Source of the DNA: Escherichia phage myPSH1131
Sequence record: MG983840.1
Reading direction: 5' to 3' (one strand)
DNA length: 64,000 bases
Positions within the stretch are counted from its first letter, which is position 1, and the number at the start of each line of letters is the position of its first letter. Under the pieces are notes generated by a model that saw only the letters and a list, made by a program, of their open reading frames with translations, did no database searches and was not told the DNA's origin. Below are positions 1 through 25,000 of this stretch, one piece after another. The translations under genes and the position numbers were made by a program.

Positions 1-1
1 T

Positions 2-1060
2 GTTGTAGGTCAAACTGAGGCTCTAGAAAATGGATATGCCGGATACATAGATTTAGCTGACTCAAACGGTAGCTTAGTCGAAATTCTTCCTCTTAAGGAT
101 TATCTATTTATCTATACGGAGTTTGAGACTTACATTGGATCCCCAACTAACAACACATATCAACCTCTAATGTTCAAGAAGCTCTTCAACGACTCTGGAA
201 TCTTAGCACCTGAGTGTGTAGTTGAAGTTGAGAGCGGACATTTCGTGGTCACTCAGAATGATGTTATTCTACACAATGGTGCAACCAAGAAGTCTATTGC
301 ATCTAACAGGGTCAAGAATATGCTTATCAACGAAGTGTGTTTAGTAAACCCTTTGGCTACTAAAGTTCATCTTCACCAAGACAAGAAGGAAGTGTGGATT
401 CTTTATGTAGGACCCGGAGAACCTGCTGGGAGCTTTGCTTGTACGAAAGCCGCTGTATGGAACTATGAGTTTGATACGTGGTCTTTCCGTACAATCCCAT
501 TCTCTCATTGTATTGGTTTAGTCGATCCTCCTACTTTAGAGAAAGGTCCTACTTGGGTTGATTTCCAAGAGTACACTTGGGATGACCCTTCAATCAGTGA
601 ACTTGTGTGGAGAAAGGATTCTACTAACTTCCGTCAGAGAGTTACTGTAGTAGGTTCTTGGATGAAAGGTTTTTACCAAGTGGACATAGGTCCTTATGAC
701 TACTCTTATGATAGGCTGAATGATATTGTTGTCAAAAAGCCCCTAGAGATGAGACTGGAAAGAACTGGTATAGATTTTGACAACGTAACTAATGAATGGA
801 ATCAAAAGCACATAAACCGATTCCGTCCACAAGTAACCGGGTCAGGTACGTACATATTCCAAGCTGGTGGTAGTCAGTATTCGGATCAAGAGGATAGGCA
901 TATTCATAGTGAAAAGTCTTATACAATTGGTGTGGACAGACATGTAGGTGTCCGACTGAACCATCCGTATCTATTCTATAATGTTATAGATAATGATGTT
1001 AACAGTAATGCAGCAATCAATGGTCTAACTATTGAGTTTGCTGTTGGCGGGCGAAGATAA
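2..1060 (+). CDS. virion/tail structural protein, C-terminal part (gene starts upstream of window)
   Basis: Reading frame is open from position 2 to stop at 1060 (track ORF 170..1060 is its internal-Met part); beta-rich composition; sits at head of tail/fiber gene block. Confidence 0.5.
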   Translation, partial: VVGQTEALENGYAGYIDLADSNGSLVEILPLKDYLFIYTEFETYIGSPTNNTYQPLMFKKLFNDSGILAPECVVEVESGHFVVTQNDVILHNGATKKSIASNRVKNMLINEVCLVNPLATKVHLHQDKKEVWILYVGPGEPAGSFACTKAAVWNYEFDTWSFRTIPFSHCIGLVDPPTLEKGPTWVDFQEYTWDDPSISELVWRKDSTNFRQRVTVVGSWMKGFYQVDIGPYDYSYDRLNDIVVKKPLEMRLERTGIDFDNVTNEWNQKHINRFRPQVTGSGTYIFQAGGSQYSDQEDRHIHSEKSYTIGVDRHVGVRLNHPYLFYNVIDNDVNSNAAINGLTIEFAVGGRR

Positions 1061-1110
1061 TACTAAGGGAGCTTCGTGCTCCCTTTTCTTGTTTATTATA
1101 AGGAGGGTCT

Positions 1111-2079
1111 ATGGGTGCTGGTGGCTTTCGTAAGAATACCGGAAGAAACAACACAACACAACCTTATAGTGTGGGCTTTCTAAACACCTCTGAGAGTGTA
1201 GAAACCAATAACGTTGCAATATATGATGAACTCCAGAACATTAGCACTGCAACCAATCAAATGTTCCAAGCTATAGATGAAATCCACGAGGAGATTGATG
1301 TTCGTATTAAAGCTCTTCATGCTATGAATTTGCAATTCGATGAATTAGAGAACCGTGTTACAACAGAGATTGAGACTGCCATTGCAGATATCATAACACA
1401 AATGGGTAATCTATCCACTGATGATATTTGGGATAACTCTGTTCAGCCTCCTGTTAAGTTAGATTCAACTATGTCTGGTATTAAGACTTCTATAGAAGGC
1501 AATACAGCATCTATTCAAACTGTCGAAGGCATTGTCAATGATCAAGGACAAGAGATTGCCCTTATTCAGTCTGATTTAACTAACGGGACAGGTAGTGCTT
1601 CTCAATATATGAAACTCACTGAATATGAAGCTACTTGGGGAGTAAATTCCACAGTAAATGGAAAGACAGCAGGAGTAAAACTGACAAATAATGGTTCTGT
1701 AAGCCAATTCCAAGTCACAGCTGATAAGTTTGTGGTATCTGATGGCACATCAGGAAGTACTCCCTTCAAGGTTGAGAATGGAAGGGCTGTTATGGAGTTT
1801 GCTGATATTACTAATGTCAATATTACAACAGCTCAAATAGCAACAGCTAGGATTGAATGGGCACAGATTGATAATGTTAGTATAACAAATGCACAAATCA
1901 CAAGTCTCTCCGCTGATAAGATAACGGCTGGGTCTATGTCAGGGACTAATTGGCGTCTTACAGTTGGCGGTGACTTTGTTTTAGGTGGAACAGGTGGTGC
2001 ACAATTATGGATGAATGGAAACAGAATAGATTTCTACGACGGAAGTGGTGCTCTAAGAATTAGAATAGGGAGTTGGTAA
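1111..2079 (+). CDS. tail fiber-like protein
   Basis: RBS AAGGAGGG upstream; C-terminal half has short repeats (ITTAQIATARIEWAQIDNVSITNAQITSLSADKITAGS) typical of phage fiber shafts. Confidence 0.55.
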   Translation: MGAGGFRKNTGRNNTTQPYSVGFLNTSESVETNNVAIYDELQNISTATNQMFQAIDEIHEEIDVRIKALHAMNLQFDELENRVTTEIETAIADIITQMGNLSTDDIWDNSVQPPVKLDSTMSGIKTSIEGNTASIQTVEGIVNDQGQEIALIQSDLTNGTGSASQYMKLTEYEATWGVNSTVNGKTAGVKLTNNGSVSQFQVTADKFVVSDGTSGSTPFKVENGRAVMEFADITNVNITTAQIATARIEWAQIDNVSITNAQITSLSADKITAGSMSGTNWRLTVGGDFVLGGTGGAQLWMNGNRIDFYDGSGALRIRIGSW

Positions 2080-2080
2080 T

Positions 2081-3112
2081 ATGGCATATGGAATATGGAC
2101 ACAACCAGTAGGGCCGGGGCCAGCAACCCCCGCTCCCTTGTTTATTGATAGCGGAAGTACTTTCCCTCAGTTCAAGAATAGTATAAGAGGGAGCTTTAAC
2201 TTTAATGGAGCTGGGAGATCTTTCCCTATTAGTGGATGGGATGGCAGTGGTCAGATAGTTATTGTTCCTACCGGTTCTTTATGCTGGCAATGGGAAGTCC
2301 CTCCTAACCTAGTTCCTGATGTTTATTGTGTGAATAATATCTATGTAGAAAACAACTCCTCTTTTAGAGTTACTCTGAATCAGAACCCCGGTAGTAATCC
2401 ACTATTCGATTGTGGGTTCAACGTATATCAAATATGGCCTAGAGCGGATAGGAATTATGGAATTACCTTTTCTAATACAGCAGACTACTTCTCAATATCT
2501 GACAGTGGGGTCGTCGGTCAATGTATTTGGGCTTGGCAGGGGACCATAAACAATGCCCTTCAGATACCAAATATCGGTGGGTTCAATATGACCAATGCTG
2601 TTGTGTTTGCTAATTGGTCTGATGGAGGGGTAGGACTATCTTATACCTCTGATGACAGGGTTATTCGCGTCTATCAGAACAGACCCTATGTCAACGGAAA
2701 CACTAATGAAGGAGGGTCTGTCTTTGCGAGGGTTGCCGTATTCTGTAACGGAGCTGGTGTTCCTGAGCATAATGGAGGTTTGAATATTTACTCTCCGGGT
2801 ACCACACAATGTGTCTTCTCTACTAACAGAACACCTTTCACTGTGGATACTTTTATAGGATCAGGAGGTGGTAACACGGGAATGTCATACCCCATGATAC
2901 CTCTTACCTCTGGGATAGGTGCAATAAAAGGCCGAGGCAGTGGATGGAGATATCAGCAAATGAGATCTCACACAATGAGTGGTTCTACGATAGGAACTGG
3001 CTATGGAAGGTATTTGTTTCAGTGGGATCAAAATTACGACCTAGGAGCTGATACTGTAGTTAATTTATCAGTCCCTGTAATAAATGCAGCTAAGGTTTTT
3101 GCTGGACTATAA
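2081..3112 (+). CDS. putative tail fiber / receptor-binding protein
   Basis: G/N/S/T-rich beta-type composition, immediately follows fiber-like gene with 1-nt spacing. Confidence 0.4.
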   Translation: MAYGIWTQPVGPGPATPAPLFIDSGSTFPQFKNSIRGSFNFNGAGRSFPISGWDGSGQIVIVPTGSLCWQWEVPPNLVPDVYCVNNIYVENNSSFRVTLNQNPGSNPLFDCGFNVYQIWPRADRNYGITFSNTADYFSISDSGVVGQCIWAWQGTINNALQIPNIGGFNMTNAVVFANWSDGGVGLSYTSDDRVIRVYQNRPYVNGNTNEGGSVFARVAVFCNGAGVPEHNGGLNIYSPGTTQCVFSTNRTPFTVDTFIGSGGGNTGMSYPMIPLTSGIGAIKGRGSGWRYQQMRSHTMSGSTIGTGYGRYLFQWDQNYDLGADTVVNLSVPVINAAKVFAGL

Positions 3113-3124
3113 CAAGGAGATATT

Positions 3125-3907
3125 ATGGCAATTAAAATGGGTATTGAAGAACTAGACCCAATGGTTCAACAGGCTTCAAAGAAGTATGGGATTCCTGCTG
3201 CTTTGATTCATGCTGTAATCCAAAGAGAGTCTAGTGGTCGTCCTACAGTAGCTTCTGGAACTGGTCCTGTAGGTTTAATGCAAATCAGTAAAGGGTTGGC
3301 TAAAGACTACGGATATAAATTGGAAGATAGATTGGACCCAGCAAAGAATATTGATATGGGTGCTCGGTATATCAGAGACAACCTAAAAGCTTTTAACGGT
3401 GACGTCAAGAAAGCAATGGTTGGTTATTCAGAAGGTATCGGCGGAGCTAAGCAAATGTTCGCTGGTAAAAGAGGGTTTACTCCACAGGCTCTTGATTCAA
3501 TGAACAATAAACACTTTCTTCCTTTCTATGGTGATGCAGCTTCTCAGATTGCTAACCCTATTGGAGCTTTGCAAGCTGTTCAACCAGTTAACCAGTTTAG
3601 TCCGGATACTCTTGATAGAGAGAAGGCTGCTCAAGCTCCGACTCAGGCAGAAATTGCTGCTTCTAAGACTGGTGCTTTAGGCGGCAATCCAGTAGAGTTT
3701 TACTCTGATGAAGCACAGGAAGGAGAAGATCAGAAGCCTCAACAGAACTTTGGTAATGCAGTATTAGGAGTAGCTGCTATGCTTGCTGGTAAACCTCCTA
3801 CTTCTCAAACAGTTCAGAGGGCAAGTGCACCACATGCAGCAGGTTCTCAGTACAGTCCACAAACACAAGCAGTGCTCAGACGTTTGGCTAGCATTGGTGT
3901 GAAGTAA
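3125..3907 (+). CDS. lytic transglycosylase (SLT domain), probably virion-associated
   Basis: RBS AAGGAGA; motifs QRESSGRP and GLMQI characteristic of SLT-family transglycosylases; located among virion genes. Confidence 0.7.
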   Translation: MAIKMGIEELDPMVQQASKKYGIPAALIHAVIQRESSGRPTVASGTGPVGLMQISKGLAKDYGYKLEDRLDPAKNIDMGARYIRDNLKAFNGDVKKAMVGYSEGIGGAKQMFAGKRGFTPQALDSMNNKHFLPFYGDAASQIANPIGALQAVQPVNQFSPDTLDREKAAQAPTQAEIAASKTGALGGNPVEFYSDEAQEGEDQKPQQNFGNAVLGVAAMLAGKPPTSQTVQRASAPHAAGSQYSPQTQAVLRRLASIGVK

Positions 3908-3926
3908 TAATCGTTAAGGAGGACTT

Positions 3927-4979
3927 ATGTCTTTATTTGGAAAATCAGCTTCTAGCAAAACCACAGTGGCTCCTTCCTCTCAGGTTGATGCCCTGCTGAA
4001 GCAGATTGTTGCTAATGCTCAGAATATGCAGAACAACGATCAGGGTTTTATTTCCCAACAGCTGGCTGGGTTCAATGGCAACCAACAAGGTGCTCTGAAT
4101 AACTTAGCAGCTTCCACAACTCAAAAACAATTGGCTAATATGTACACACCTCGTACACAGCAAGGATTGGACCAACTAAATGCTCTTGCCCAACAGTATC
4201 AGAATATTGTTAATAGTGGTGGAGTGACGGCTGAAGGGGTTAATAACTTTAGTAAAGGTTTGAATAACTCAGCTCTTGCACAAGCTACTAGCAAAGCAGC
4301 TTCTAATGTCTCTCTTGGTAATGGCTCTGACTCTGGCTCTCTCCGTAGGGCTGCGGCTCAAGGGGCTGCTTTGAATGGTGCTAACACTAACCTGTCTCGT
4401 ACTATCAGTGGCAAGAATATGGGGATCAGTGCTCTTCAACAAGACCAAAACTTCCAGAGAGGCTTACTTGGTGCTCAGTCAGGGTTAGCTGGACAGAATC
4501 TCAATCTTGGTGCTCAAGGTGTTCAGGCAACTCAACAGGCTATTCAGAATCAGCTCATGGCTGGTAATTTACAACAGCAGCAAGCTCAGGCTCAAGCTGA
4601 TATCAATTGGCAGAACGCTATTGGCTCTCAGCAGTATGGATGGAATCAGCTTAACAACCAGCTTAATGTACTAAACAGTGTAAGTCCAATGGCTGGATAC
4701 ACAATTAAGAATGCTGCTCCGGGAGTTAATGTTGGACAGCAGCTCCTAGGTGCTGGTATCACTGGATTAGGTATTGCAGGTCGTATGGGTGCTTTCTCTC
4801 CTAATCAACAGACTCAGAATGCTTGGAGTTCCTATAACAACTCAGGTGGGCAATCTGGAATGGCTGGTCCTATGATTGGGGGTTCTAATCTTTCTCAACA
4901 GAGAGGTCAGTCTAACTGGTTATCCACAGCAGGTAGTAATATCTTAGGTGGTGTCTTAGGGGCATTTGGAGCAAACTAA
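3927..4979 (+). CDS. Q/N/G-rich virion protein (putative internal/ejection protein)
   Basis: RBS AAGGAGG; low-complexity Q/N/A/G-rich 350 aa; diverged paralog at 11147..12100. Confidence 0.5.
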   Translation: MSLFGKSASSKTTVAPSSQVDALLKQIVANAQNMQNNDQGFISQQLAGFNGNQQGALNNLAASTTQKQLANMYTPRTQQGLDQLNALAQQYQNIVNSGGVTAEGVNNFSKGLNNSALAQATSKAASNVSLGNGSDSGSLRRAAAQGAALNGANTNLSRTISGKNMGISALQQDQNFQRGLLGAQSGLAGQNLNLGAQGVQATQQAIQNQLMAGNLQQQQAQAQADINWQNAIGSQQYGWNQLNNQLNVLNSVSPMAGYTIKNAAPGVNVGQQLLGAGITGLGIAGRMGAFSPNQQTQNAWSSYNNSGGQSGMAGPMIGGSNLSQQRGQSNWLSTAGSNILGGVLGAFGAN

Positions 4980-4991
4980 AGGAGAATATCT

Positions 4992-5960
4992 ATGTCACTT
5001 TTTGGTGGAGGCGGAAGTAAAACTACTTCCCAAATGATTCGTCCTGAATACATTCAACAGTATATTGACCAGCTTAATAAGCAGATTGGTAATACCAGTT
5101 CAGGGGATTATGTTTATCGAGATAATGTAGGGTTTAATAATAACCAGACAGAGGCACTTAACAACTTAGCACAATCTGGTGCTCTAGGAACTCTCTCACA
5201 GCAGTATATGGATGCAGCAGGTCAAGGGTTAGGGTATCTAGATAATGCCTATAAAGGCTATCAGAGCCTCTCTGGACAAGGTGGGATTACTGGAGAACAG
5301 ATTGGTGCTCTCGCTGGTCAATTATATGATGATGACGCTGTGCAAGCAGCCATTACAGCTAATAATGAACAAGTTCAACAGAATCTAGCACGTAATGCTC
5401 TTCCTCAGTTAGCTCAGCAGTATGCTGGTCAGCAAGGTTCAGGTGCTCGTATGGCTAAATCTTTTGCCCAAGGTGATGCTCTGAATCAGATGCAAGGGCA
5501 AGCAACAGATATTACCAACAGTGCCTATAACTCGGCTATTAGTCAAGCTGAAAGCATTCTCTCTGGTAATAGACAGAATCAGGCAGCTGCTCTCTCTGGT
5601 CTTTCTACTATTGGTTCTAACCTTTCTAACCTAGGTCAGCAGGGTGCTAATTTGTCTCAACAGCAAATGATGAATCAATGGAATGCAGGATTGCAGCAAC
5701 AACAGCAACAACAGAATGAATATGATAATGCCTACCAGAATGCTCAGAACGCAGCTAATTGGGGATGGCAAGATATCAACAACCAACTCGGTGCAGCAGG
5801 TGTACTTAACGGTGCTCTCGGACAAACTACAACCACTAAAACCTCTGGTGGCAAAGGTGGTTTCCTTGGTGGAGCTATGAGTGGTTCAGCAGCAGGCTCT
5901 TCCTTTGGGCCTTGGGGTGCATTAGCTGGGGGTCTAATCGGTGGGTTGGCTAGTACTTAA
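4992..5960 (+). CDS. Q/N/G-rich virion protein (putative internal/ejection protein)
   Basis: RBS AAAGGAGA; Q-rich with poly-Q tract and G-rich C-terminus; paralog at 12504..13472. Confidence 0.5.
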   Translation: MSLFGGGGSKTTSQMIRPEYIQQYIDQLNKQIGNTSSGDYVYRDNVGFNNNQTEALNNLAQSGALGTLSQQYMDAAGQGLGYLDNAYKGYQSLSGQGGITGEQIGALAGQLYDDDAVQAAITANNEQVQQNLARNALPQLAQQYAGQQGSGARMAKSFAQGDALNQMQGQATDITNSAYNSAISQAESILSGNRQNQAAALSGLSTIGSNLSNLGQQGANLSQQQMMNQWNAGLQQQQQQQNEYDNAYQNAQNAANWGWQDINNQLGAAGVLNGALGQTTTTKTSGGKGGFLGGAMSGSAAGSSFGPWGALAGGLIGGLAST

Positions 5961-5973
5961 TTAGGAGATAAAT

Positions 5974-7623
5974 ATGCAACAGACAACTTACGCTCAGGTC
6001 AGAAGTCGTGACCCGAGAAATACTTTCTATGGTGTTAATCCGGGAGCGGCTTCGGCCTCTCCTTATATGGCTAGACCCGTTCAGACAGCAGATATTTCTA
6101 TGTATCAACGACCTGCTGTACCTGCTGGGTTATCTGCTCTTGTAGGTCAAACTTCAGTTGATTATCAGAATATGTTGAATCCTGTTCAGAGTAATGGTCT
6201 TCCTTCTGACATTCCGAATGATGTACAACCTCAATCACAACAGGCTGTAACTCTTCCTGAGTTTGAGAACCAAGAAACCATGCAAGCTGCTGGACTTTCT
6301 CCTTCTGCTATTCCTCAAGAATCAGAACCTCTTCCGGTAACACCTCCTACTAAACCGCTAGAAGCTGGTCCTATGGAGTTTACTCCTTCTCAGGTAGAAC
6401 AGGCACAAGGTGTGATTAACACTCTTGCTCAAGGACAAGACACTGGTGATGGAATGGCTGCTGCTACTCGTGCTAAAGATCAAGAGCGTGTTAACAACGA
6501 TATCTTGCAAGTTGCGAAAGCTAAAGACCCTTCAGAAGCTTGGAACAAACTACAGAAAGAACCATTCTATCAGAACTCTAGTTTCTATACAGGTTTGATG
6601 GGTGTAGGTCTTTCCATTATGTCAGGTAAGTCTCCTATTGAAGCTTTCCAGATTGGTCAGGGAATGGCTAATCAGGATGAGACTAAGAAGCAACTGGAAG
6701 CTAACCGTGATGCCTTGATTGAACAAGGCTTCTCTCAAGACTCGATCGCAGCTGCTATTGCTAACGGAGACCCGTCTCTACTGAAGATGAGAGCTGTAGA
6801 CCCTGCTCAGAAAGAAGCGCTGTATGCTGCTCGTGAAGAACGACAAAATGCTGAATGGGATAGACGTCAACAGATTCAAGAGCAAACTATGCGTGAGCGT
6901 GCTGATGAAACTCGTCGTGCCGCTGAAGAAAGAGCTAACATGAACTTTGAACGTCAGAAAGAGTTGATTGGTTATCGTGATAAGGTTAAGGCTGAACGTG
7001 CTGAACAAGCTGCTCAGAGTTTTAACTTTAACCCGAAAGAAGTTCGTCTTGCTCAGAATACAGCTGAAGGTACGGTTGCTAAGCAGTGGGCAGAGAAAGG
7101 TGGCCTGTTTAACCAGTCTAACAAAGACTTGGATTTGGCTGATAAAGCTGTTAAGGATAAAGACTATCAGACAGCTCGTTCTGCTTACATGCAGGCTATC
7201 ATGAACTCTGCAAGGGCTGAAATCGGTGCTACTCGTTCTCTTACCGAAGAAGACTTAGGGCACTTTGCAGAAGACCCATCAATCTTCGTTCGTGTTGGCA
7301 ACAAGTTTGCACTGAAATCTGGATGGCGTCCTACTGATTCTGCTCTTGCTTATGCTCGTAAGCAAGCTAACGTTGGTCACACCTCTGCAATGAAAGGTGT
7401 TGCTGATGCTAAGAGAGCTACGATTGAAGCTTACATCGGTTCTGGTATGGATAAGAAGAGAGCTACTGCATTGGTTAACCGTGCAATCCCTTCTGGTGGT
7501 TTCTATGACCCTCTAGGTGTTTTCTCTGAACAAGCAGAAGAAGCAGTTGGTGGTGCAGTAACCAATCCTAAGCTTAATGGTGCTTTATCAGCTGTCGAAG
7601 ACACTAGCTGGTTCACTCAATAA
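5974..7623 (+). CDS. internal virion protein (549 aa)
   Basis: RBS TAGGAGA; P/Q-rich N-terminus then charged coiled-coil-like region; truncated paralog at 13486..14319. Confidence 0.5.
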   Translation: MQQTTYAQVRSRDPRNTFYGVNPGAASASPYMARPVQTADISMYQRPAVPAGLSALVGQTSVDYQNMLNPVQSNGLPSDIPNDVQPQSQQAVTLPEFENQETMQAAGLSPSAIPQESEPLPVTPPTKPLEAGPMEFTPSQVEQAQGVINTLAQGQDTGDGMAAATRAKDQERVNNDILQVAKAKDPSEAWNKLQKEPFYQNSSFYTGLMGVGLSIMSGKSPIEAFQIGQGMANQDETKKQLEANRDALIEQGFSQDSIAAAIANGDPSLLKMRAVDPAQKEALYAAREERQNAEWDRRQQIQEQTMRERADETRRAAEERANMNFERQKELIGYRDKVKAERAEQAAQSFNFNPKEVRLAQNTAEGTVAKQWAEKGGLFNQSNKDLDLADKAVKDKDYQTARSAYMQAIMNSARAEIGATRSLTEEDLGHFAEDPSIFVRVGNKFALKSGWRPTDSALAYARKQANVGHTSAMKGVADAKRATIEAYIGSGMDKKRATALVNRAIPSGGFYDPLGVFSEQAEEAVGGAVTNPKLNGALSAVEDTSWFTQ

Positions 7624-7690
7624 GACCTAAGTCCTGCCTTCTATAATGTATATAGGGGGTAGGACATTTTTATTTATAAAAGGAGACGTT

Positions 7691-10600
7691 ATGGCTAACA
7701 TTAAACCGTGGGAAGAAGCTTCCAAAGCTCCTGCGTATCTGAATGCCTCTCCGGAGCAACAAGCTCAAATGAGAGAACAATATAAGGCAGCAGGTGGCTC
7801 TATTCCTGAGGAACAACCAGTAGCACAACCACAACAAGAAGAACGTGGTGCTATAGGTGAGTTTGCTCAAGGTGTGTCAAATGCTCTTCAATCTGGTGGT
7901 GCAAATATTGCAGCTAGTGCTGCTAAAGGTATTGGTGGTTTAGTTGAGATTGGTGAGAATCTAGCTGGAGCACAAACTAGTTATGGTAAGCGTATCCAAG
8001 AGAACTCTCAGAATCTTCTGAAAGAACGTATGGATAAGATTGAGGATGGGATTGGTAAAACTGTCGGTCAGTATGCTGGCGTTGCTGGTGATATCGGTTT
8101 GACAGTTGCTAACCCATTGGCTGCTGCTGCTATCATCGCAGGTCGTGAGACAGGTCGTGCATATGCAGACCAAACCCCTGAAGAGGGAGAAGATAAGTCT
8201 ATTCTAGATGCAGCCTTAGTTGGTGGTGCTAACTATGCGGCTCAGAGAATCCTTCCGGGTGCTGTCGGTACAGCTGAGTCCACACTTGGACGTATTGGTC
8301 AGAACGTTGCTAGTAACGCAGTGGCTGGTGCTAAAGGTGGCGCTCTTGTGGGTGCTGCTGAAGCTCAGAACAAGCATGGAGATGATACAACCTTTGCTAA
8401 TGTATTAGAGGGTGCTATCGAAGAAGGTGCTATGGGTGCTGCATTCGGTGGTGCAGTTGGTGGAGTTCATGGTTTGATTAGCCGTCCAGATTCTGCTGTC
8501 TTCAAGAATACTCCAGAGTATGCGAAGACTGATATTGCTGCTGATGATGAACTAATTCGTAGTGCTAAGAATATTGATGAACTGAAAGAAGCTTACTCTA
8601 AAGCTGAAACTGCTAACGCTGCTTCTGCTCTGAATCTTCTGGATGAGAATGGATTCCGTATTACAGATGCTGTTGCTGTGGATTCTCCTGCTGCTCAGCG
8701 TATTCTTAATACTGACCAAGCTCGTGCTGAGAAAGCTGCTTCTGTTCAGAAAGAACATTCCAACATTCCGGGCCTTAATCCTTTAGCTTCTCCTGCTAAG
8801 ACTCGTGGTAAAGCATTTGCTGATAATGAGCACAACCAGAAGCAGGCTGTTGCTATGAAGGATGCAATGGCTGACTACACCAAAGACAACACGAAAGCTC
8901 TTACAGATGTTCTAGATAACCTAGACCGTGAATTAACTTCTCTCCGAGCTTCTGGTGATTTTACTGGTAGTCCGATTGATATTAAGAATCGTACACAAGC
9001 TGACCGTGATTTCATTGATGCTTACAAGACTTTCTACAATGAAGCAAATCGATTCAAAGCTCGTGAAGGTGAAGATTTTAATAACTTTGTAGAGAAAGCT
9101 ACTGAACTACAGAAGATGGCTGATAATGTTTCTCCAGAGATGAAGAAAGCTATCGGTGGGTTGAAGAAACTGAAAGGTATGCCTGAAGGTTTTAATCCTA
9201 TTCAAGATGCTTATACTCTGAACAATACAGCTAAATTCATGAGCAACCAAGATCGTGGTTGGACTTCCTTGACTGATGATGGATTCCGTGAAGCTTCTTC
9301 ACCTAGTCTGGTAATGAACACTCTTGGTGCTGCTAAGTATGCTCTGAATCGCTTCTCTTCTCAGCGTGCTCGTTCTCAACGTGTTAAGCAACAAGAATCT
9401 AACAGTGAAGCTATCCGCTCTCTTGCTCGTGGTGATTTGGAAGTTGCTCGTGCTAAATCTACTGCTGATGAAGCTCGTGCTAAGATGGAAGAAGAACCAG
9501 TTGTTGATGACATTAAATTTAAGACGCAAAATGACGTAGAAACCGAACCGGTTCGGGAGCCTTCTTCTAGTACTGTGACGGAAGAAAATCTTCCTTCTTC
9601 TACTCCTCAAGAGACTCCTCTTACAGCTCGTGATTTAGTTGCGCAAAGACGCGCTATCCGTCAGGCTGAACAGCGTCGCGCTGAAGAAGAGGCATTGGCT
9701 GCTCAAGAAGCTCCGGTCGAACAGGCTCCACAGGCTGAACCTCTCCCTGCTCGTAACCCTCTAGAGGAGCGTCGTGCAATGGAACAGCAACGTGCTCAAG
9801 AAGAGGCCGCACAGGCTCCAGAACCTACCGTAGAGGAACCAACAGTCAAAGCTGAGCCATTACCTGCCCGTGCTCCTAAAGCTCCTAAGGAAGCTGTACA
9901 GGACGTTAAACCGGCAAGTGGTGTAGAACGTTTAGCTGCTATGTCTAGTGCTGCTCGTCAGGCTACTAAAGATCGTGCAGAACGCTTTGCTCGTTCTCTG
10001 TACTCTAAGGCTGCTAAAGCTAAAGCTACTGCTGAAAACTTCTTGGCTTATAAAGGTGATCCTAAGGAACTGATGCGTCGTATTCGTCAGGAAGATAATG
10101 CTATCAACACTGAACGTCATGAAGAAATGGCTCGTAACCAGTTGGCTTCTCAGCAAGGTATTGCTACTGCTAAGAACAACACTGTACGAACTAATTTTGC
10201 TGAATGGGTTAAGGAACGTGGTCTGCCAGAAGACATTGCTACTAAGGCATTACGTGCTGAAGAGAAAGGTTTAGGTGGGAACGTAACTAACTTGGATAGT
10301 CTGAAACGTCGTGCTGAAAGGTTGTATCAGAAGCAGCGTGAAGATGAGTTTGATAGACTGTACCAACAAGCTCTAGAAGAGAATAAAGCTTTCGATAACA
10401 AGAATGCTCCTAAGCTGGTTGACCAGAAGAAAGAGCTTCAGTCTGAGATTGATACTTTGATTGATGCAGAACCTTTACGTCCTGCTCAGAAAGACGCTAT
10501 GCGTAAATTGATGAATGACTTTGTAGATGGAAAGTTTAAATCTTCAGAGAAGGCTGGTAGGGAAGAGGCTTTGGAAGTTGGTCAGATGAAGGATATTTGG

Positions 10601-11038
10601 GATGGGTTTATTAACACCTATAACAGAGAAGTGAATGCCTTCAACAAAGCTAACAAGAACTCTCAGTACGAAGCTGCTGCTAAGCATTTACAGGCTCGTG
10701 AAGAACGTCTTGCTACACTCAGGAAAAAGGCTCAGGCTCGTTCGGATGCTAAAGCTGCTGTTGAGAATGAACGTAAAACTCTAGAGGCTATTGCAGCTCA
10801 GAAGAGTGAGATTGAGAAGATGATGGAAGGTTTACCTAAACCTGTTCGTGAGGCTCAGGAATCTCGTACACTGAAACAGTTGGCTGCTCACCACGATAAG
10901 AACTCTCCAGTTCCTCCAGAGAAGTTCCGTAGTTACATTGAACGTATCCATAACGCCGAGTCAGACTACCTTGATCGTCAGCGTCGTTTAACTGATGCAG
11001 AGGAAGATGCTCGTCAGGCTAAGTGGAACAAGATGTAG
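7691..11038 (+). CDS. large A/E/K/R-rich coiled-coil virion protein (about 1115 aa)
   Basis: Start chosen at ATG 7691 preceded by AGGAGA (track ORF begins 7646); long charged, Ala-rich sequence; size and position fit an internal core/ejection protein. Confidence 0.5.
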   Translation: MANIKPWEEASKAPAYLNASPEQQAQMREQYKAAGGSIPEEQPVAQPQQEERGAIGEFAQGVSNALQSGGANIAASAAKGIGGLVEIGENLAGAQTSYGKRIQENSQNLLKERMDKIEDGIGKTVGQYAGVAGDIGLTVANPLAAAAIIAGRETGRAYADQTPEEGEDKSILDAALVGGANYAAQRILPGAVGTAESTLGRIGQNVASNAVAGAKGGALVGAAEAQNKHGDDTTFANVLEGAIEEGAMGAAFGGAVGGVHGLISRPDSAVFKNTPEYAKTDIAADDELIRSAKNIDELKEAYSKAETANAASALNLLDENGFRITDAVAVDSPAAQRILNTDQARAEKAASVQKEHSNIPGLNPLASPAKTRGKAFADNEHNQKQAVAMKDAMADYTKDNTKALTDVLDNLDRELTSLRASGDFTGSPIDIKNRTQADRDFIDAYKTFYNEANRFKAREGEDFNNFVEKATELQKMADNVSPEMKKAIGGLKKLKGMPEGFNPIQDAYTLNNTAKFMSNQDRGWTSLTDDGFREASSPSLVMNTLGAAKYALNRFSSQRARSQRVKQQESNSEAIRSLARGDLEVARAKSTADEARAKMEEEPVVDDIKFKTQNDVETEPVREPSSSTVTEENLPSSTPQETPLTARDLVAQRRAIRQAEQRRAEEEALAAQEAPVEQAPQAEPLPARNPLEERRAMEQQRAQEEAAQAPEPTVEEPTVKAEPLPARAPKAPKEAVQDVKPASGVERLAAMSSAARQATKDRAERFARSLYSKAAKAKATAENFLAYKGDPKELMRRIRQEDNAINTERHEEMARNQLASQQGIATAKNNTVRTNFAEWVKERGLPEDIATKALRAEEKGLGGNVTNLDSLKRRAERLYQKQREDEFDRLYQQALEENKAFDNKNAPKLVDQKKELQSEIDTLIDAEPLRPAQKDAMRKLMNDFVDGKFKSSEKAGREEALEVGQMKDIWDGFINTYNREVNAFNKANKNSQYEAAAKHLQAREERLATLRKKAQARSDAKAAVENERKTLEAIAAQKSEIEKMMEGLPKPVREAQESRTLKQLAAHHDKNSPVPPEKFRSYIERIHNAESDYLDRQRRLTDAEEDARQAKWNKM

Positions 11039-11146
11039 TAGAGAAAGACTAGCTTAAAAGAGGAACCTCATGAGGAATAAGAACGAAGATTGTAAGTATA
11101 GTTCAAACCGAGGTCATAATATAATAGATTTCATAAGTATTAGAAT

Positions 11147-12100
11147 ATGCAGAACAACGATCCGGGATTCATCTCCCAACAGCTGGCTGGGTTTAATGGC
11201 AACCAACAAGGTGCTCTGAACAACTTAGCAGCTTCTACTACTCAGAAGCAATTGGCTGATATGTACACACCTCGTACACAGCAAGGGTTGGACCAATTAA
11301 ATTCTCTTGCACAGCAGTATCAGAATATTGTCAATGGTGGTGGTCTAACTGCTGATGGTGTTAATAACTTTAGTAAAGGATTGAATAACTCAGCTCTTGC
11401 TCAAGCGACTAGTAAGGCAGCTTCCAATGTATCCCTCGGAAATGGTTCTGATTCAGGCTCTCTCCGTAGAGCTGCTGCTCAAGGTGCTGCTCTGAACAGT
11501 GCTAATACAAACTTAGCTCGTACTATCAGTGGCAAGAATATGGGAATCAGTGCTCTTCAACAAGACCAAAACTTCCAGAGGGGCTTACTTGGTGCTCAGT
11601 CAGGATTGGCTGGACAGAATCTCAATCTTGGTGCTCAAGGTGTTCAGGCAACTCAACAAGCTATCCAGAATCAACTCATGGCTGGTAATCTACAACAGCA
11701 ACAAGCCCAAGCTCAAGCTGATATTAATTGGCAGAACGCTATTGGCTCTCAACAGTATGGGTGGAATCAGCTTAACAACCAACTTAATGTATTAAATAGT
11801 GTAAGCCCAATGGCTGGGTACACGATTAAGAATGCTGCTCCGGGGGTTAATACTGGACAACAGCTCCTAGGTGCTGGTATCACTGGATTAGGTATTGCAG
11901 GTCGTATGGGTGCTTTCTCTCCTAATCAACAGACTCAGAATGCTTGGAGTTCCTATAACAACTCAGGTGGGCAATCTGGAATGGCTGGTCCTATGATTGG
12001 TGGTTCTAATCTTTCTCAACAGAAAGGTCAGTCTAACTGGTTATCCACAGCAGGTAGTAATATCTTAGGTGGTGTCTTAGGGGCATTTGGAGCAAACTAA
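11147..12100 (+). CDS. paralog of Q/N/G-rich virion protein, lacking the first ~33 codons
   Basis: Aligns to residues 34-350 of ORF 3927..4979 with scattered substitutions; upstream sequence unrelated. Confidence 0.45.
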   Translation: MQNNDPGFISQQLAGFNGNQQGALNNLAASTTQKQLADMYTPRTQQGLDQLNSLAQQYQNIVNGGGLTADGVNNFSKGLNNSALAQATSKAASNVSLGNGSDSGSLRRAAAQGAALNSANTNLARTISGKNMGISALQQDQNFQRGLLGAQSGLAGQNLNLGAQGVQATQQAIQNQLMAGNLQQQQAQAQADINWQNAIGSQQYGWNQLNNQLNVLNSVSPMAGYTIKNAAPGVNTGQQLLGAGITGLGIAGRMGAFSPNQQTQNAWSSYNNSGGQSGMAGPMIGGSNLSQQKGQSNWLSTAGSNILGGVLGAFGAN

Positions 12101-12112
12101 AGGAGATTTGAT

Positions 12113-12502
12113 ATGAGTATGGAGTCTAAAGGATATAAAGACCCTGCCAAATACGAAGCTTATCTTGAAAGACAGAGAGATTATAAGAGACGTAAAAGGG
12201 TCGAGGGTGACCCTTGGTATGATCCTGAAAAAGTGAGAGCTAAGAATCTCCAAAAGATGTATGGGATATCTCATGAAGAATATGAGAAAATGTGGGAAGA
12301 ACAAGAAGGGCTTTGCAAGATCTGTGGTAATCCAGAGAGTGTTAAACTTAAAGGTGTGGTTAAGCTACTAGCTGTAGATCATTGTCATTTATCTGGCAAG
12401 GTTCGTGGTCTTCTTTGTAATAACTGCAACAGAGCGATAGGTATGCTTAAGGATGACCCTGAGATACTTCGTCGTGCTGCTAGCTATTTAGAGGAGATAT
12501 AA
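12113..12502 (+). CDS. HNH homing endonuclease
   Basis: RBS AAGGAGA; HNH motif LAVDHCHLSGKVRGLLCNNCNRAIG plus CKICG; inserted between the duplicated virion genes. Confidence 0.8.
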   Translation: MSMESKGYKDPAKYEAYLERQRDYKRRKRVEGDPWYDPEKVRAKNLQKMYGISHEEYEKMWEEQEGLCKICGNPESVKLKGVVKLLAVDHCHLSGKVRGLLCNNCNRAIGMLKDDPEILRRAASYLEEI

Positions 12503-12503
12503 T

Positions 12504-13472
12504 ATGTCGCTTTTCGGAGGCGGGGGTAGTAAAACTACTTCCCAAATGATTCGCCCTGAATACATTCAACAGTATATTGACCAGCTTAACCAACAGATTG
12601 GTAATACTAGTTCAGGGGATTATGTTTATCGGGACAACGTAGGATTTAATAATAACCAAACAGAGGCACTTAATAACTTAGCACAATCTGGCGCTTTAGG
12701 CACTCTCTCACAGCAATACATGGATGCAGCAGGTCAAGGGTTAGGTTATCTGGATAATGCCTATAAAGGCTATCAGAGCCTCTCTGGACAAGGTGGGATT
12801 ACTGGAGAACAGATTGGTGCTCTCGCTGGTCAACTGTATGATGATGACGCTGTGCAAGCAGCCATTACAGCTAATAATGAACAGGTTCAACAGAACTTGG
12901 CACGTAATGCTCTTCCTCAGTTGGCTCAACAGTTTGCCGGTCAACAAGGTTCAGGTGCTCGTATGGCTAAGTCTTTTGCCCAAGGTGATGCTCTGAATCA
13001 GATGCAAGGGCAAGCAACAGATATTACCAATAGTGCATATAACTCGGCTATCAGCCAAGCTGAAAGCATCCTCTCTGGTAATAGACAGAATCAGGCAGCT
13101 GCTCTCTCTGGTCTTTCTAATATTGGTTCTAACCTTTCTAACCTAGGTCAGCAGGGTGCTAATTTGTCTCAACAGCAAATAATGAATCAATGGAATGCAG
13201 GGTTGCAGCAACAACAGCAACAACAGAATGAATATGATAATGCCTACCAGAATGCTCAGAACGCAGCTAATTGGGGATGGCAAGATATCAATAACCAACT
13301 CGGTGCAGCAGGTGTACTTAACGGTGCTCTCGGACAAACTACAACTACTAAAACATCTGGTGGCAAAGGTGGTTTCCTTGGTGGAGCTATGAGTGGTGCA
13401 GCAGCTGGCTCTTCCTTTGGACCTTGGGGTGCATTAGCTGGGGGTGTAATCGGTGGGTTGGCTAGTACTTAA
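12504..13472 (+). CDS. paralog of Q/N/G-rich virion protein (full length)
   Basis: Collinear with ORF 4992..5960 over 322 aa with few substitutions. Confidence 0.5.
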   Translation: MSLFGGGGSKTTSQMIRPEYIQQYIDQLNQQIGNTSSGDYVYRDNVGFNNNQTEALNNLAQSGALGTLSQQYMDAAGQGLGYLDNAYKGYQSLSGQGGITGEQIGALAGQLYDDDAVQAAITANNEQVQQNLARNALPQLAQQFAGQQGSGARMAKSFAQGDALNQMQGQATDITNSAYNSAISQAESILSGNRQNQAAALSGLSNIGSNLSNLGQQGANLSQQQIMNQWNAGLQQQQQQQNEYDNAYQNAQNAANWGWQDINNQLGAAGVLNGALGQTTTTKTSGGKGGFLGGAMSGAAAGSSFGPWGALAGGVIGGLAST

Positions 13473-13485
13473 TTAGGAGATAAAT

Positions 13486-14319
13486 ATGCAACAGACAACT
13501 TACGCTCAGGTCAGAAGTCGTGACCCGAGAAATACTTTCTATGGTGTTAATCCGGGAGCGGCTTCGGCCTCTCCTTATATGGCTAGACCAACTCAGACAG
13601 CAGATATTTCTATGTATCAACGTCCTGCTATACCTGCTGGGCTTTCCTCTCTTATAGGTCAAACTTCAGTAGATTATCAGAATATGTTGAATCCTGTTCA
13701 GAGTAATGGTCTTCCTTCTGATATCCCAAATGATGTACAACCTCAAGCACAACAGGCTGTAACTCTTCCTGAGTTTGAGAATCAAGAAACCATGCAAGCT
13801 GCTGGACTTTCCCCTTCTTCTATTCCTCCAGAATCAGAACCTCTTCCGGTAACACCTCCTACTAAACCGTTAGAAGCTGGTCCTATGGAGTTTACTCCTT
13901 CTCAGGTGGAACAGGCACAAGGTGTGATTAATACTCTTGCTCAAGGACAAGATACTGGTGATGGAATGGCTGCTGCCACTCGTGCTAAAGATCAGGAACG
14001 TGTTAACAACGATATATTGCAAGTTGCGAAAGCTAAAGACCCTTCGGAAGCTTGGAACAAACTACAGAAAGAACCATTCTACCAAAACTCCAGTTTCTAC
14101 ACAGGTTTGATGGGTGTAGGTCTTTCCATTATGTCAGGTAAGTCTCCTATTGAAGCTTTCCAGATTGGTCAGGGAATGGCTAATCAAGATGAGACTAAGA
14201 AGCAACTGGAAGCTAACCGTGCGTCATACATCCCAATTCTCTTCAGAAGTCTGGATGTTCATCTTCAAAGCATCCTGAGATGCCTCCATAGAACCAATCC
14301 GATTTACTTCCAAGGATAA
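13486..14319 (+). pseudogene. truncated paralog of internal virion protein
   Basis: Matches first ~245 aa of ORF 5974..7623, then diverges after KKQLEANR into unrelated sequence and stops. Confidence 0.45.
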
Positions 14320-14513
14320 CAACTTCTTCATTCATATACCCTCCTAGATTGTGTTTATAAAATTAGTAAGTTTCTCTTCACTTTCATCAAAAGCTTTTCC
14401 AGCTGCTTCCATCTCCCAAGTATCGGCATTGTCAATAAAGCTCTGAGCTTCTAATAGGTCGTGGATTAAGTCGAAGAGTTTATTTTTATCTGCTTGTGTG
14501 ATCATGTCAGTTC

Positions 14514-14741
14514 CTAGATTAAATCGTAATACTGAATAATGTCAGAGAGTTTGAACTCTCGAATCTCATCTTTCTCTACATCTATCGCTGTCATAATCCA
14601 ACAAGGTTTGCCACCGTTATGAAAACGGGAGCTAGCAACGGAGGTTCGGAGTGGAATAACGGACCGGTCAGCAACCTCGCCTCTCCAATTGCGATAGCGA
14701 AAGCGAAGCACTTGTTGCGTAGATTTTTGATCATCACTCAT
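14514..14741 (-). CDS. hypothetical protein (75 aa)
   Basis: ATG at 14741 overlaps the stop of the upstream HNH gene; the track ORF extends further 5' into the HNH gene. Confidence 0.35.
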   Translation of the reverse strand: MSDDQKSTQQVLRFRYRNWRGEVADRSVIPLRTSVASSRFHNGGKPCWIMTAIDVEKDEIREFKLSDIIQYYDLI

Positions 14742-15135
14742 TTCCTTTTTTGAATTGTTTTCTTGCATCATTCTCTTCTTTTGTTTTAATCTTATGACAA
14801 GGGTCTTTACACAGAACCTGAAAACCTTCTTTCTCACACAGAGCACGAGAGATGATCTCATCCCAAGTGGCTTCATGGTCAAGAGGAACTATAGGCTCTA
14901 TGTGGTCAATAGCCATATCCTTTACAGGGTGGTCAGAACCACACATGGCACACTTAAAGTGCATTGCCAGTCTACCTGTCTTTGGATTAATCTTCTGCTC
15001 TGTCTTGGCGTCTGCTAGTGCATCGAACATGGGCTTCCACTTTCTAGTCAGAGAACGAATCCCTGACTTGATAAAAGAATTGTAACGAGCTTCAGTCCAC
15101 ATTCCAGAGCATCTAGTCTTCTCAGCCTTCGCCAT
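14734..15135 (-). CDS. HNH endonuclease
   Basis: Motif CAMCGSDHPVKDMAIDHIEPIV and a further Cys/His cluster; N-terminal 60 aa shared with ORF 20560..20943. Confidence 0.7.
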   Translation of the reverse strand: MAKAEKTRCSGMWTEARYNSFIKSGIRSLTRKWKPMFDALADAKTEQKINPKTGRLAMHFKCAMCGSDHPVKDMAIDHIEPIVPLDHEATWDEIISRALCEKEGFQVLCKDPCHKIKTKEENDARKQFKKGNE

Positions 15136-15313
15136 AACCTACACTCATATCATCTTCTTCCCATACACGTTTATCTACTCGGTGTGATACTTTTTCACGT
15201 TTTTCTTTAATATAGCGGTTGCCTAATTCGTGGCTATATTTAATACGCTGCTCTTTACGAGATTCACGGTTGGAGGAGTTTTCATCATATGAACGATAAT
15301 CAAATTTACCCAT
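15122..15313 (-). CDS. small basic hypothetical protein
   Basis: 63 aa R/K/E-rich; a 57-aa paralog at about 20925..21108. Confidence 0.3.
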   Translation of the reverse strand: MGKFDYRSYDENSSNRESRKEQRIKYSHELGNRYIKEKREKVSHRVDKRVWEEDDMSVGYGEG

Positions 15314-15326
15314 TATAATATCCTTA

Positions 15327-16169
15327 TTACCAAGATTTATCTAACCATGTCCAGTCGAACAGGTCTTCCGGAGTCTGACCAACAAAGAGCAGCCGAGCAT
15401 TCTCAAGCATCTTCTCTTCATCTTCAGTATCGAACTTCTTATAATATTCCATTCGTACTATATGATACATGGTCCATCTATCTGTAACACCAGCCAACAG
15501 ACTAGCTGCTGCTTTCTTCCCTATTCCTTGACGTCGAAGCTGAAGCTTACCACCCCACATAACCTCTTTACGTTCCCCACATCCGGGGATGTTATCCGTA
15601 CCATCTCCAATCAACATTTGATAGAAGAAGTTTTGCCATGAAACTAAATCAGATACGTAATGAGGAGGGACTTCTTTCTGTCTTTCTCCACAAGCCCAGC
15701 GATAATGCCATCCGGGAGTTATCAACAAATCCTTGTCTCTAGTACAGATGATAGTATTCTTATCCCTACGTTGCCTTTCAGCTAGTGCATCATCAGCCTC
15801 TCTCCCAAAGACCTCAATGTATTCGTACTTGGCTTTAATGTAATCACCAACGTTTTGCCAGTGAAAAGGTCTTTCTCCGGGAGGTCTGTTTGCCTTGTAG
15901 TCTTGTTGCTTAGCAACATCGAAACGGAAGTTACCGCCTTCGCTGAAGTAGAATACAACCTTACTACAACCCGAGCGAGCTATAATTGTATCAATCTTGT
16001 ACTGAAGTCGTTCAATCATGAAATTGTAATCAACTGGAACACGTCCTGTGTCAAGGAAGGGATGCTCCTGAGTAAGAGCACCCACTTCATACCGAAGAAC
16101 GTCAGCGTCCACTATAGCAACTTCAGGGAGCTTAACTTCTTCCATAAATATCATCCTGAGCTTGAGCAA
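15327..16169 (-). CDS. 5'-3' exonuclease / flap endonuclease (FEN family)
   Basis: PIN-like N-terminus (IVDADVL) and H3TH motif LIGDGTDNIPG...GIGKKAAASLL. Confidence 0.75.
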   Translation of the reverse strand: MLKLRMIFMEEVKLPEVAIVDADVLRYEVGALTQEHPFLDTGRVPVDYNFMIERLQYKIDTIIARSGCSKVVFYFSEGGNFRFDVAKQQDYKANRPPGERPFHWQNVGDYIKAKYEYIEVFGREADDALAERQRRDKNTIICTRDKDLLITPGWHYRWACGERQKEVPPHYVSDLVSWQNFFYQMLIGDGTDNIPGCGERKEVMWGGKLQLRRQGIGKKAAASLLAGVTDRWTMYHIVRMEYYKKFDTEDEEKMLENARLLFVGQTPEDLFDWTWLDKSW

Positions 16170-17021
16170 TAATCCAATCTAGGTCTGATACTGCTGATTC
16201 AATAGTTGAGTCATTAAACAGTAGATATGTTTTTCTCTGTTCGCCTTCAATATACGAGCGAGAATCTCTATCAAAAGAACAACCATCTCTAAGAACTTGG
16301 ACAACTTGGACATTGAAATTCTTTTCTAGTTCTCGTACCTCTGCATCAAAGCCTCCGTCAGTGAAAACAATAATGTCGTCCTGACCCAGCCCTTCTTGTT
16401 TGATGCTCTCTACAGCAAGATTCCCCATATGGTTGTTGCCAAACATAGGTTTTAAGAAGTCTTCACTTGTAGAAATCATCAAATCTCTTACAGACTTCCC
16501 TCCCCATTCTGGTCTAGGCTTTTCTTTCCATTCACGATCTTCATAGAGTGCTAGAAAGTTTTCTAGAGGCATACCCAATGCAGCAGCAGCTACATTATAC
16601 ATCGGCTCCTTGAAAGACTTGGTTGAATATCCATGATGGTATGAGTGTGCATTTACCCAAGCACTAGCTATCGTATCTTTACCACAACCCGGAGGCCCAT
16701 TAAGAATTACCACTAAAGGTTTATATTGGGAGCATTCCACCATATTAGTCAGTGCTGGATTGCCTTGAGATTCCATTTCTAATTGCTCCGTGTGGTCATG
16801 TGAGTAGTCTACTGGAGAAGTTTTGTTACCAGTAACTTTAGGTAAAATCGCTCTAGTTGTTTCTACGTATTTACCGCCATCAATATTGATTTGAAACTCT
16901 ACAAGCTCATTCTGTAACTCATATCCTGATAAGTTGGATAGCTCCTCCAACTCATCTCTGACGAAATTTAAATGTTTGATTTTAATTGCAAGAGCTTTCT
17001 TTAAAGCTTTTACCTCTTCAT

Positions 17022-17031
<10 letters not shown>
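16132..17031 (-). CDS. P-loop kinase (nucleotide or polynucleotide kinase-like)
   Basis: Walker A LNGPPGCGKDT; Asp-rich downstream motifs; substrate not assignable from sequence. Confidence 0.55.
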
Positions 17032-18315
<1,284 letters not shown>

Positions 18316-18552
18316 AATGCATCTCTTTATAAATAGTTTCCGTGTTCTTCTTCCAGTTAGATAAACCGGTAAGAACCCTCTGAGCAACTTCATCAGCTGC
18401 CCTACTTCTTTCAATCTCTAACTCTTGCTGGTGCTTCTCTTTGTCCAGATTACTGCTGTCTGTTTGGTACTCGTTAAACTTCATACCACCAAAGAATACA
18501 AGAGCTGAGAAAATGATAAACCCTATATTATCACTTAATGTACTTTGCATAC

Positions 18553-18576
18553 TGTCTCCAACGAAAAAAGCCACCC
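18553..18576 (-). terminator. intrinsic terminator downstream of SSB gene
   Basis: Minus-strand hairpin GCCACC-UUCG-GGUGGC followed by six U. Confidence 0.6.
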
Positions 18577-18607
18577 GAAGGTGGCTAAGCTATAACAAGG
18601 AGAGTTA

Positions 18608-19354: not shown

Positions 19355-19428
19355 AGTGTAATTTCCTTATTTAATTTGAAAGATTGTTGCTCTCTTTGAG
19401 CGGTTATGTATAATATACATTACATATA

Positions 19429-19802
19429 TAGTGTAGGAACTACCGGAAGGTAGTAGGTTTTGTCCAAACAAAAGTCTCTTTAGAATTATTTGTTGGAGAT
19501 TGTCTCTTATAAACCCGAGACTGCCTAGCAGTTACATAAGCTCTAGCTTTTTCTGTAGCTGCATACTTATGGTTAAATTTCATGGTAGTATATCTCTAAG
19601 TGCTATAATGTATATAAGTTATAGCTGATAAAGTTATTGCACGGGACTGACGACGATAAGGCGCAGACGACAATCTCTCATAAGTTTGTAAGAAATTGAG
19701 AGACTACCGGAAGGGCAGGAGCCACCTGCGAGATAAAAATAGAGAATTAAGGAATCCTTGATTTAGGTTGTAGGGACTCCTAGGGACTTTGATTCTCTAT
19801 TT
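19429..19802. promoter_or_regulatory. intergenic regulatory region with hairpin and inverted repeats
   Basis: ACTACC-GGAA-GGTAGT hairpin at 19429..19444, partial copy at 19703; 11-bp inverted repeat AAATAGAGAAT / ATTCTCTATTT (19737..19747, 19792..19802) flanking two TAGGGACT direct repeats. Confidence 0.35.
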
Positions 19803-20046
19803 AAAAGAATATTAATTACTTATTACCTAAATAATTAACTAACTTACTTAAACCAAATTCAATAAGAATAGATAAAAAGATTATTCCTAAGAAAGCTAAA
19901 AAGTAAAGGATATAAGTTACCATTCAAGTAAACCTTTAAAGTTAGATTTTTCTACTATCCTCTGATAACGAAGATTAGAATCAGCTTGTTTCTTTAACAT
20001 CTCATTATACTGATCTCTGATAGAGTCTTTATGTACTACAGGTTCT

Positions 20047-20550: not shown

Positions 20551-20559
20551 AAAGACCTC

Positions 20560-24993: not shown

Positions 24994-25000
24994 TTCTTAT

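Follow-up and report, generated by a model that had tools for sequence, protein, structure and literature searches.

Does a single phage genome carry two diverged sets of the genes for its ejection proteins? The question is raised by sequence record MG983840.1 (Escherichia phage myPSH1131), of which a stretch of 64,000 nucleotides (nt), here called the window, was analysed. Three adjacent virion-protein genes at 3927-7623 recur in the window at 11147-14319, the second time with an endonuclease gene between the first and the second of them. An earlier note on this DNA had described the arrangement as a diverged duplication of virion genes, and had offered as explanations either recombination with a co-infecting relative, driven by a homing endonuclease, or an assembly chimera of two related phages. 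We conclude, with a probability of about 86%, that the second copy is not a real duplication but a chimera produced by the assembly of mixed strains or by scaffolding.

Two Copies of an Ejection-Protein Gene Block

In a megablast search of 50,697 phage records, the first part of the window (1-20000) matched some 100 coliphages of the phiEco32/SU10 type (genus Kuravirus), with Escherichia phage ES17 (MN508615.2, 75,007 base pairs (bp)) as the best match, and by this similarity the window is identified as Kuravirus sequence. Direct BLAST comparison with ES17 revealed two long and nearly identical blocks, one pairing window 1-11037 with ES17 16832-27868 (99.94% identity) and the other pairing window 14222-20568 with ES17 29011-35356 (99.84% identity). 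The ES17 interval that should lie between them, 27869-29010, is occupied in the window by the second copy instead.

Copy 1 forms part of the ejection-protein module of the genus by sequence similarity, gene order and protein sizes, all of which are those of SU10, phiEco32 and ES17. Its three plus-strand genes encode a gp21-like ejection protein of 350 amino acids (aa) (3927-4979; phrog_4287 "DNA ejection protein", E = 3e-117; the counterpart of SU10_021), which is the ES17 allele and lies within the block of 99.94% identity, a gp22-like ejection protein of 322 aa (4992-5960; phrog_4287, E = 1.5e-108; SU10_022) and a gp23-like ejection protein of 549 aa (5974-7623; phrog_12130 over its full length; SU10_023). 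They are followed on the same strand by the gene of a gp24-like large ejection protein (7646-11038; phrog_14629, profile positions 1-1115 of 1473), which is cut at codon 1130 of 1473. In SU10, virion proteomics showed that the head releases five ejection proteins, namely gp20-24 (PMC9509320). The SU10 annotation gives 260, 350, 322, 551 and 1473 aa for SU10_020 to SU10_024, with a terminator and convergent genes beyond, and the window matches this layout in gene order and sizes (549-551 aa at the gp23 position), but differs from it in that gp24 stops at 1130 aa, the terminator is gone, and a partial second set of gp21-gp23 comes after.

The recurrence itself is beyond doubt. Self-BLAST of the window aligned 4021-4985 with 11142-12106 (92.3% over 965 nt, E = 0) and 4977-6709 with 12489-14221 (94.9% over 1734 nt, E = 0), and the open reading frames (ORFs) lie where the earlier note had placed them, with amino acid differences between the copies (10/317, 6/322 and 7/245) that are scattered, as it had said. 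The first gene of copy 2, a plus-strand fragment at 11142-12106 with an MN03-like allele, lacks its first 33 codons; its ORF (11147-12100, 317 aa) begins at an ATG at 11147 that corresponds to codon 34, an internal methionine of gp21, in agreement with the note. The second gene (12504-13472, plus strand) is complete at 322 aa, is an allele of another lineage, and has its exact protein on a European Nucleotide Archive (ENA) scaffold. The third, also on the plus strand, is a fragment of 245 codons (13486-14221): beyond 14221 it is no longer homologous to copy 1, ES17 or MN03, which bears out the claimed truncation after about 245 residues, and the ORF reads on for another 32 unrelated codons until it meets a stop at 14319, for 277 aa in total. 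An exact protein look-up found this chimeric 277-aa product on record in no assembly.

Allelic Origin of the Second Copy

If copy 2 were a paralog derived from copy 1, the two would be expected to be each other's closest relatives. They are not. Copy 2 is 99.6% identical in nucleotide sequence to phage MN03 over 11142-12115 (MN03 28924-29897) and 97.8% over 12489-14221, 98.6% identical to phage EcK-vB over the latter interval, and 98.6% identical to an ENA metagenome scaffold (L014) over 12061-13635, and is thus nearer to all three than to copy 1. Its gp21 fragment matches that of MN03 at 317/317 amino acids, with only 4 synonymous nucleotide differences, and its second gene matches at 321/322. 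Between the two copies, 125 of the 158 differences fall at third codon positions, and the ratio of nonsynonymous to synonymous substitution rates (dN/dS) is 0.03-0.10. Because copy 2 is nearer to MN03 than to copy 1 (92-95%), and because the differences are mostly synonymous, the two copies are orthologous alleles, and each has been evolving as a functional gene within a lineage of its own. The diverged duplication proposed in the earlier note does not survive this comparison.

The related genomes agree. The segment 12489-14221 is held at exactly one place in 75/75 matching GenBank kuravirus records, a comparison that the note had called for. A dedicated IMG/VR search for gp22-related loci returned 3 loci only, little beyond the GenBank set. 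At 33% amino acid identity, gp21 and gp22 are old paralogs, the sole genuine duplication at this locus and one found throughout the genus.

Within gp23, a segment of about 200 nt (6124-6324 in copy 1, 13636-13836 in copy 2) did not align to two of the natural contigs (L003 and L014), while its flanks aligned at 92-98%; the segment may mark a hypervariable part of the protein.

Junctions of the Second Copy

Identity to ES17 on the left side runs to ...AAGATGTA (window 11037, ES17 27868) and is followed by a filler of 104 nt (11038-11141) that begins TAG TAG and falls in the 98-104-nt length class described below. Since the junction cuts the ORF and the filler supplies TAG TAG, gp24 ends at codon 1130 of 1473, with the loss of 343 codons (the 3' quarter) and of the terminator. 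The 1,037 nt of ES17 27869-28905 are absent throughout the window. The filler is an orphan: neither ES17 nor MN03 nor any other reference matches it, and nothing similar was found in the 50,697 phage records at E <= 1 or in IMG/VR or JGI metagenome contigs.

The right junction (14221|14222) is blunt and without microhomology. Both of its flanks are 100% MN03-like, and in MN03 coordinates it amounts to a deletion of 5,470 nt (31612|37083); the shift to ES17-like sequence occurs farther on, between 14318 and 14367. A 33-mer across this junction was absent from IMG/VR and JGI metagenome contigs, and a megablast search with window 10500-14800 gave no junction-region match in E. coli genomes or plasmids. 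From 14222 to 20568 the ES17-like backbone is resumed as a minus-strand block of early and middle genes, and no plus-strand terminator was found after the truncated genes. The end of gp24 reappears out of place: a plus-strand fragment of its 3' end and terminator region lies at 20678-20730 (94% identity to ES17 28906-28957 and MN03 36978-37029), 9.6 kilobases (kb) from the truncated gene, where it opens the next re-copied block.

Two further observations concern the left junction. Six of the seven mismatches between the first block and ES17 are clustered in the last 100 nt before it (window 10936-10990), and some of these carry the MN03 base, so that the allele shifts just before the block ends. 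The possibility that the left filler supplies a terminator or a promoter was considered and rejected, as nothing in it rose above shuffled expectation.

A Patchwork across the Window

The second copy is one of many such features. Self-BLAST of the window gave 28 internal repeat alignments at 70-100% identity, which include at least 15 diverged re-copies spread across the 64 kb. Against ES17, the window resolves into 13 blocks whose ranges overlap and whose start coordinates rise monotonically (16832, 20852, 28906, 35767, 41901, 51967, 52138, 52138, 54378, 57055, 60477, 66037 and 70627). Single segments are present as up to three alleles, each nearest to a different lineage. Sequence is lost as well as repeated: of ES17 16832-74100, conserved sequence amounting to 11.2 kb is absent from the window and 10.7 kb are present at least twice. 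Every kuravirus carries a single transfer RNA (tRNA) gene (PMC9965538, genome table); ARAGORN detected none in the window.

The joints between the blocks show a second regularity. There are 22 stretches that align to no reference, and half of these (11/22) are 98-104 nt long. The fillers consist either of kuravirus snippets of 18-35 nt taken from kilobases away or of orphan sequence. In one case a filler of 98 nt stands in for a stretch of 44 nt between two perfectly colinear blocks, at a site where conservation of the flanks reaches at least 98.6% across 98 records, none of which (0/98) has the filler. We conclude from these comparisons that the window is, to judge by its alleles, a patchwork of at least three co-occurring Kuravirus genotypes, one ES17-like, one MN03-like and at least one other. 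The assembly chimera suggested by the earlier note is therefore upheld in kind, but its "two related phages" fall short, as the number of genotypes is at least three and the chimerism extends over the whole window.

The peak of joint lengths near 100 nt, the overlapping blocks sorted along the reference and the several alleles per locus together argue for an ordering of contigs with fixed gaps, and not for recombination. By common convention, a gap whose size is unknown is written as 100 N. The allelic origin of copy 2, the single copies of its relatives, the loss of sequence, the window-wide pattern and the joint peak can be read directly from the alignments; as to the specific route of assembly and scaffolding, we infer that contigs from a mixed-strain assembly would most likely have been ordered along a reference and joined with gaps of fixed length that were later filled, although another form of computational concatenation would fit equally well. 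Along this route, copy 2 (11142-14221) would be the head of an MN03-like fragment (gp21-endoVII-gp22-gp23), set down after the previous fragment had ended inside gp24. This fragment would have suffered an internal misjoin or deletion of its own, of 5.5 kb, before merging into ES17-like sequence.

The window shares with mixed-strain chimeras and reference-ordered scaffolds that fragments of different strains cover the same interval, as overlapping blocks sorted by their start on the reference and carrying the alleles of different strains. With reference-ordered scaffolds it further shares joints of fixed length, peaking at 98-104 nt, even where, as in the 98-nt joint just described, the true stretch measures 44 nt. 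It differs from them in that the joints are made of bases with 18-35-nt snippets and not of N runs, and in that some joins are blunt. As for a real duplication, neither are the copies closest relatives nor is the rest of the genome intact.

Several points weigh against a scaffolding origin. The fillers are real bases, and the idea of scaffold gaps therefore requires an additional, inferred step of gap filling. Both flanks of the right junction (14221|14222) are MN03-like, which would fit a genuine deletion variant in the population as well. Several of the duplicated blocks are joined without a 100-nt filler, so that one simple scaffolding rule does not cover every joint. A kuravirus imitation generated by computer would look similar, but the feature would then be equally unreal. 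Finally, the verdict on the joins was reached from the assembled sequence. For practical purposes, paralogs, gene fusions and truncations should not be sought in the window, since the chimeric origin is shared by at least a dozen further "duplications" there.

The Endonuclease Cassette

The gene that interrupts copy 2 requires separate treatment. It is a free-standing plus-strand ORF of 129 aa (12113-12502), inserted exactly at the start of gene 2, between gp21 and gp22, and belongs to the Endonuclease VII family of His-Me finger nucleases (PF02945, E = 6e-26; 90.6 bits against a cut-off of 23.6), with the core motif CxxC...DHCH...CNxCN. The earlier note had placed an HNH homing endonuclease here. 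A nuclease ORF is indeed present at this position, but the family was misassigned: a Pfam scan at E <= 0.01 returned Endonuclease_7 only, and no HNH (PF01844). The Endonuclease_7 and Pfam HNH families belong to the same structural superfamily, and by its profile match the ORF is HNH-like only in the broad, His-Me-finger sense. It resembles T4 endonuclease VII (gp49, 1EN7; E = 1.6e-5) and Hpy99I (3FC3; E = 2.5e-6) in the zinc-binding beta-beta-alpha-metal core. It differs from both in its length of 129 aa, in its N-terminal part and in its context, which is like that of a selfish insertion, with no sign of a role as a Holliday-junction resolvase or a restriction enzyme.

The best relatives in the phage database are 46-59% identical, while a protein in a large protein collection (P0001) is 98% identical at the amino acid level. 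An exact look-up of the 129-aa protein itself gave no record. P0001 is encoded on an ENA contig of 74,935 bp and on four Logan contigs, in the order 350 aa, endonuclease, 322 aa, 551 aa and 1526 aa, each gene once; the L014 scaffold has the order endonuclease, 322, 551 and 1473 aa. In total, the endonuclease occupies the same position on six natural contigs (L003-L007 and L014), all with the single-copy order, and was found at the gp21/gp22 site in 0/75 GenBank kuraviruses. In the window the cassette has the boundaries seen in L003. It opens at the ribosome-binding site and ATG used by gp22 in the empty alleles and brings with it a new ribosome-binding site for gp22. Between lineages it is 96-97% identical, compared with 91-94% for its flanks.

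By its distribution among these contigs, the cassette is a genuine, polymorphic natural feature of some kuravirus lineages, and it is probably a homing-type mobile endonuclease. Like the homing genes of lytic phages, such as the T4 seg and mob genes and the Endonuclease VII-family gp13.5 of Kayfunavirus EcoDS1, it is a small His-Me-finger ORF at a precise intergenic site between conserved structural genes. As with other free-standing phage homing genes, it is present in some lineages, absent from close relatives and better conserved than its flanks; it differs from these in taking over the ribosome-binding site and start codon of gene 2 and supplying a new ribosome-binding site in their place. 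The cassette thus offers a testable candidate homing endonuclease that occurs in wild kuraviruses and is absent from all 75 deposited genomes.

Alternative Explanations

Among the alternatives, the one that survives best, though we consider it unlikely, is that the molecule is real. Illegitimate recombination between co-infecting kuraviruses would have put an MN03-like gp21'-endoVII-gp22-gp23' segment into an ES17-like genome, making it partially diploid and probably defective. Such an event would account for copy 2 being a natural allele of another lineage and for its intact ORFs, one of which starts from an internal ATG, and the net length added relative to ES17 is only about 6.7 kb. The price, however, is the loss of 343 codons from gp24, itself among the five ejection proteins (PMC9509320), and of the terminator, in an arrangement that no relative shows. 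At least 12 more events of the same kind would be needed in one genome, mostly with orphan joints of about 100 nt, and the genome would have lost the tRNA as well as some 11 kb of conserved genes.

Somewhat further down in our estimation stands a synthetic origin, in which the sequence would be an imitation of a kuravirus, perhaps model-generated, with jumps that copy back and skip ahead. Fillers pieced together from short snippets of distant parts of the genome, joints of regular length and an exact sequence found in none of the collections searched are all compatible with it. Copy 2, however, contains an endonuclease cassette that is rare and has otherwise been met on a few metagenome contigs only, and where it departs from these contigs the differences are natural in pattern and mostly synonymous, which real reads of an unsampled strain explain more easily. 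A synthetic origin would leave much the same traces as an assembly artefact, and the verdict on the second copy is the same under either, namely that the feature is unreal.

Doubtful to a greater degree than these two is the stronger proposition that a real, single ES17-like molecule exists with a partial MN03-like ejection set, and that both allelic sets could be expressed and packaged together. If true, no earlier kuravirus would have had two divergent ejection-protein sets, and structural genes would have been captured ectopically, which is unusual.

Very improbable is the gene conversion driven by a homing endonuclease that the earlier note had offered as one explanation, in which the enzyme of a co-infecting phage would have cut the resident genome and repair would have copied the flanking genes of the donor. 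The cassette is polymorphic and somewhat better conserved than its flanks (96-97% vs 91-94%), as expected of a mobile homing gene. Homing and co-conversion, however, act at the homologous locus, where the donor allele takes the place of the recipient's. At 4980-4991 the resident gp21/gp22 junction has no insert and is ES17-like throughout, and on this ground the explanation was rejected. In addition, the donor fragment lies 7 kb downstream of that site, with non-homologous ends (the orphan left joint of 104 nt and the blunt right joint) and with the 3' quarter of gp24 deleted.

Least credible of all is a tandem segmental duplication within one genome whose second copy then diverged and decayed: the copies are colinear and on the same strand, but copy 2 is nearly identical to the alleles of other phages (99.6% to MN03; 98.6% to EcK-vB and L014), is set apart from copy 1 by differences that are nearly all synonymous, a signature of purifying selection that is unexpected for a truncated and non-functional copy, and shares its endonuclease insertion with independent natural contigs.

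Other Repeats, Fillers and Neighbouring Genes

Upstream of copy 1, and present once, is the plus-strand gene of a gp20-like ejection protein with a lytic transglycosylase domain (3125-3907), which agrees with SU10_020 (260 aa) in size and position. The SLT family (PF01464) was found at the gp20 position in natural relatives, and ES17_21 is annotated as "lytic transglycosylase".

Elsewhere in the window, three tandem alleles of the ES17_79/80 region (ES17 52138-53749) occupy 41691-46038, separated by fillers of 99-110 nt. The last of these (44427-46038) is 100% identical to ES17, the middle one (43115-44327) 97.8% identical to MN03, and the first (41691-43004) at most 95% identical to either; their origin is the same patchwork as that of the copy 2 block. 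Three alleles are likewise present of ES17 30566-31821, which covers the 3' end of an exonuclease gene and its neighbour: 15777-17032 (99.8% ES17), 21453-22708 (96.2% MN03) and 23112-24280 (99.3% MN03), the latter two joined without a 100-nt filler.

Other repeats differ in scale. A perfect tandem duplication of 76 nt (48229-48304 = 48305-48380) corresponds to a single sequence in ES17 (55966-56041). A repeat of 208 nt at 100% identity (35290-35497 = 39700-39907) is adjoined by one of 1.33 kb at 93% (35542-36872 vs 39895-41222); these are two alleles of the ES17 47692-49253 region, set 4.4 kb apart.

The fillers were also compared with the sequence that they replace. One of 100 nt (52352-52451) takes the place of 1,767 nt (ES17 58710-60476, genes ES17_86-88) and contains three short snippets of the missing region in changed order; another of 100 nt (56399-56498) takes the place of 1,435 nt (ES17 64602-66036, the tRNA-Arg region by its position in MN03). 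That fillers are shuffled copies of the replaced sequence was rejected, as the base counts differ. In a test of whether fillers preserve a reading frame, about half had an open minus-strand frame, which by estimate is about chance level. A consistent zone of allele switching of 100 nt at every joint was likewise rejected, since mosaicism near the joints is irregular.

Two longer stretches lack a counterpart in the references. The first, of 243 nt (46039-46281), replaces 323 nt that hold the whole of ES17_81 and codons 1-25 of ES17_80; it has no match and contains stops in 2/3 minus-strand frames, and the region around it is conserved to at least 98.6% across 98 phage records. The second, of 455 nt (53820-54274), has no nucleotide match in ES17, MN03 or the other local reference loci. 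On its minus strand, some 151 codons stay open, with a product that resembles a small membrane protein, and the stretch may be a lineage-specific accessory gene replacing ES17_91.

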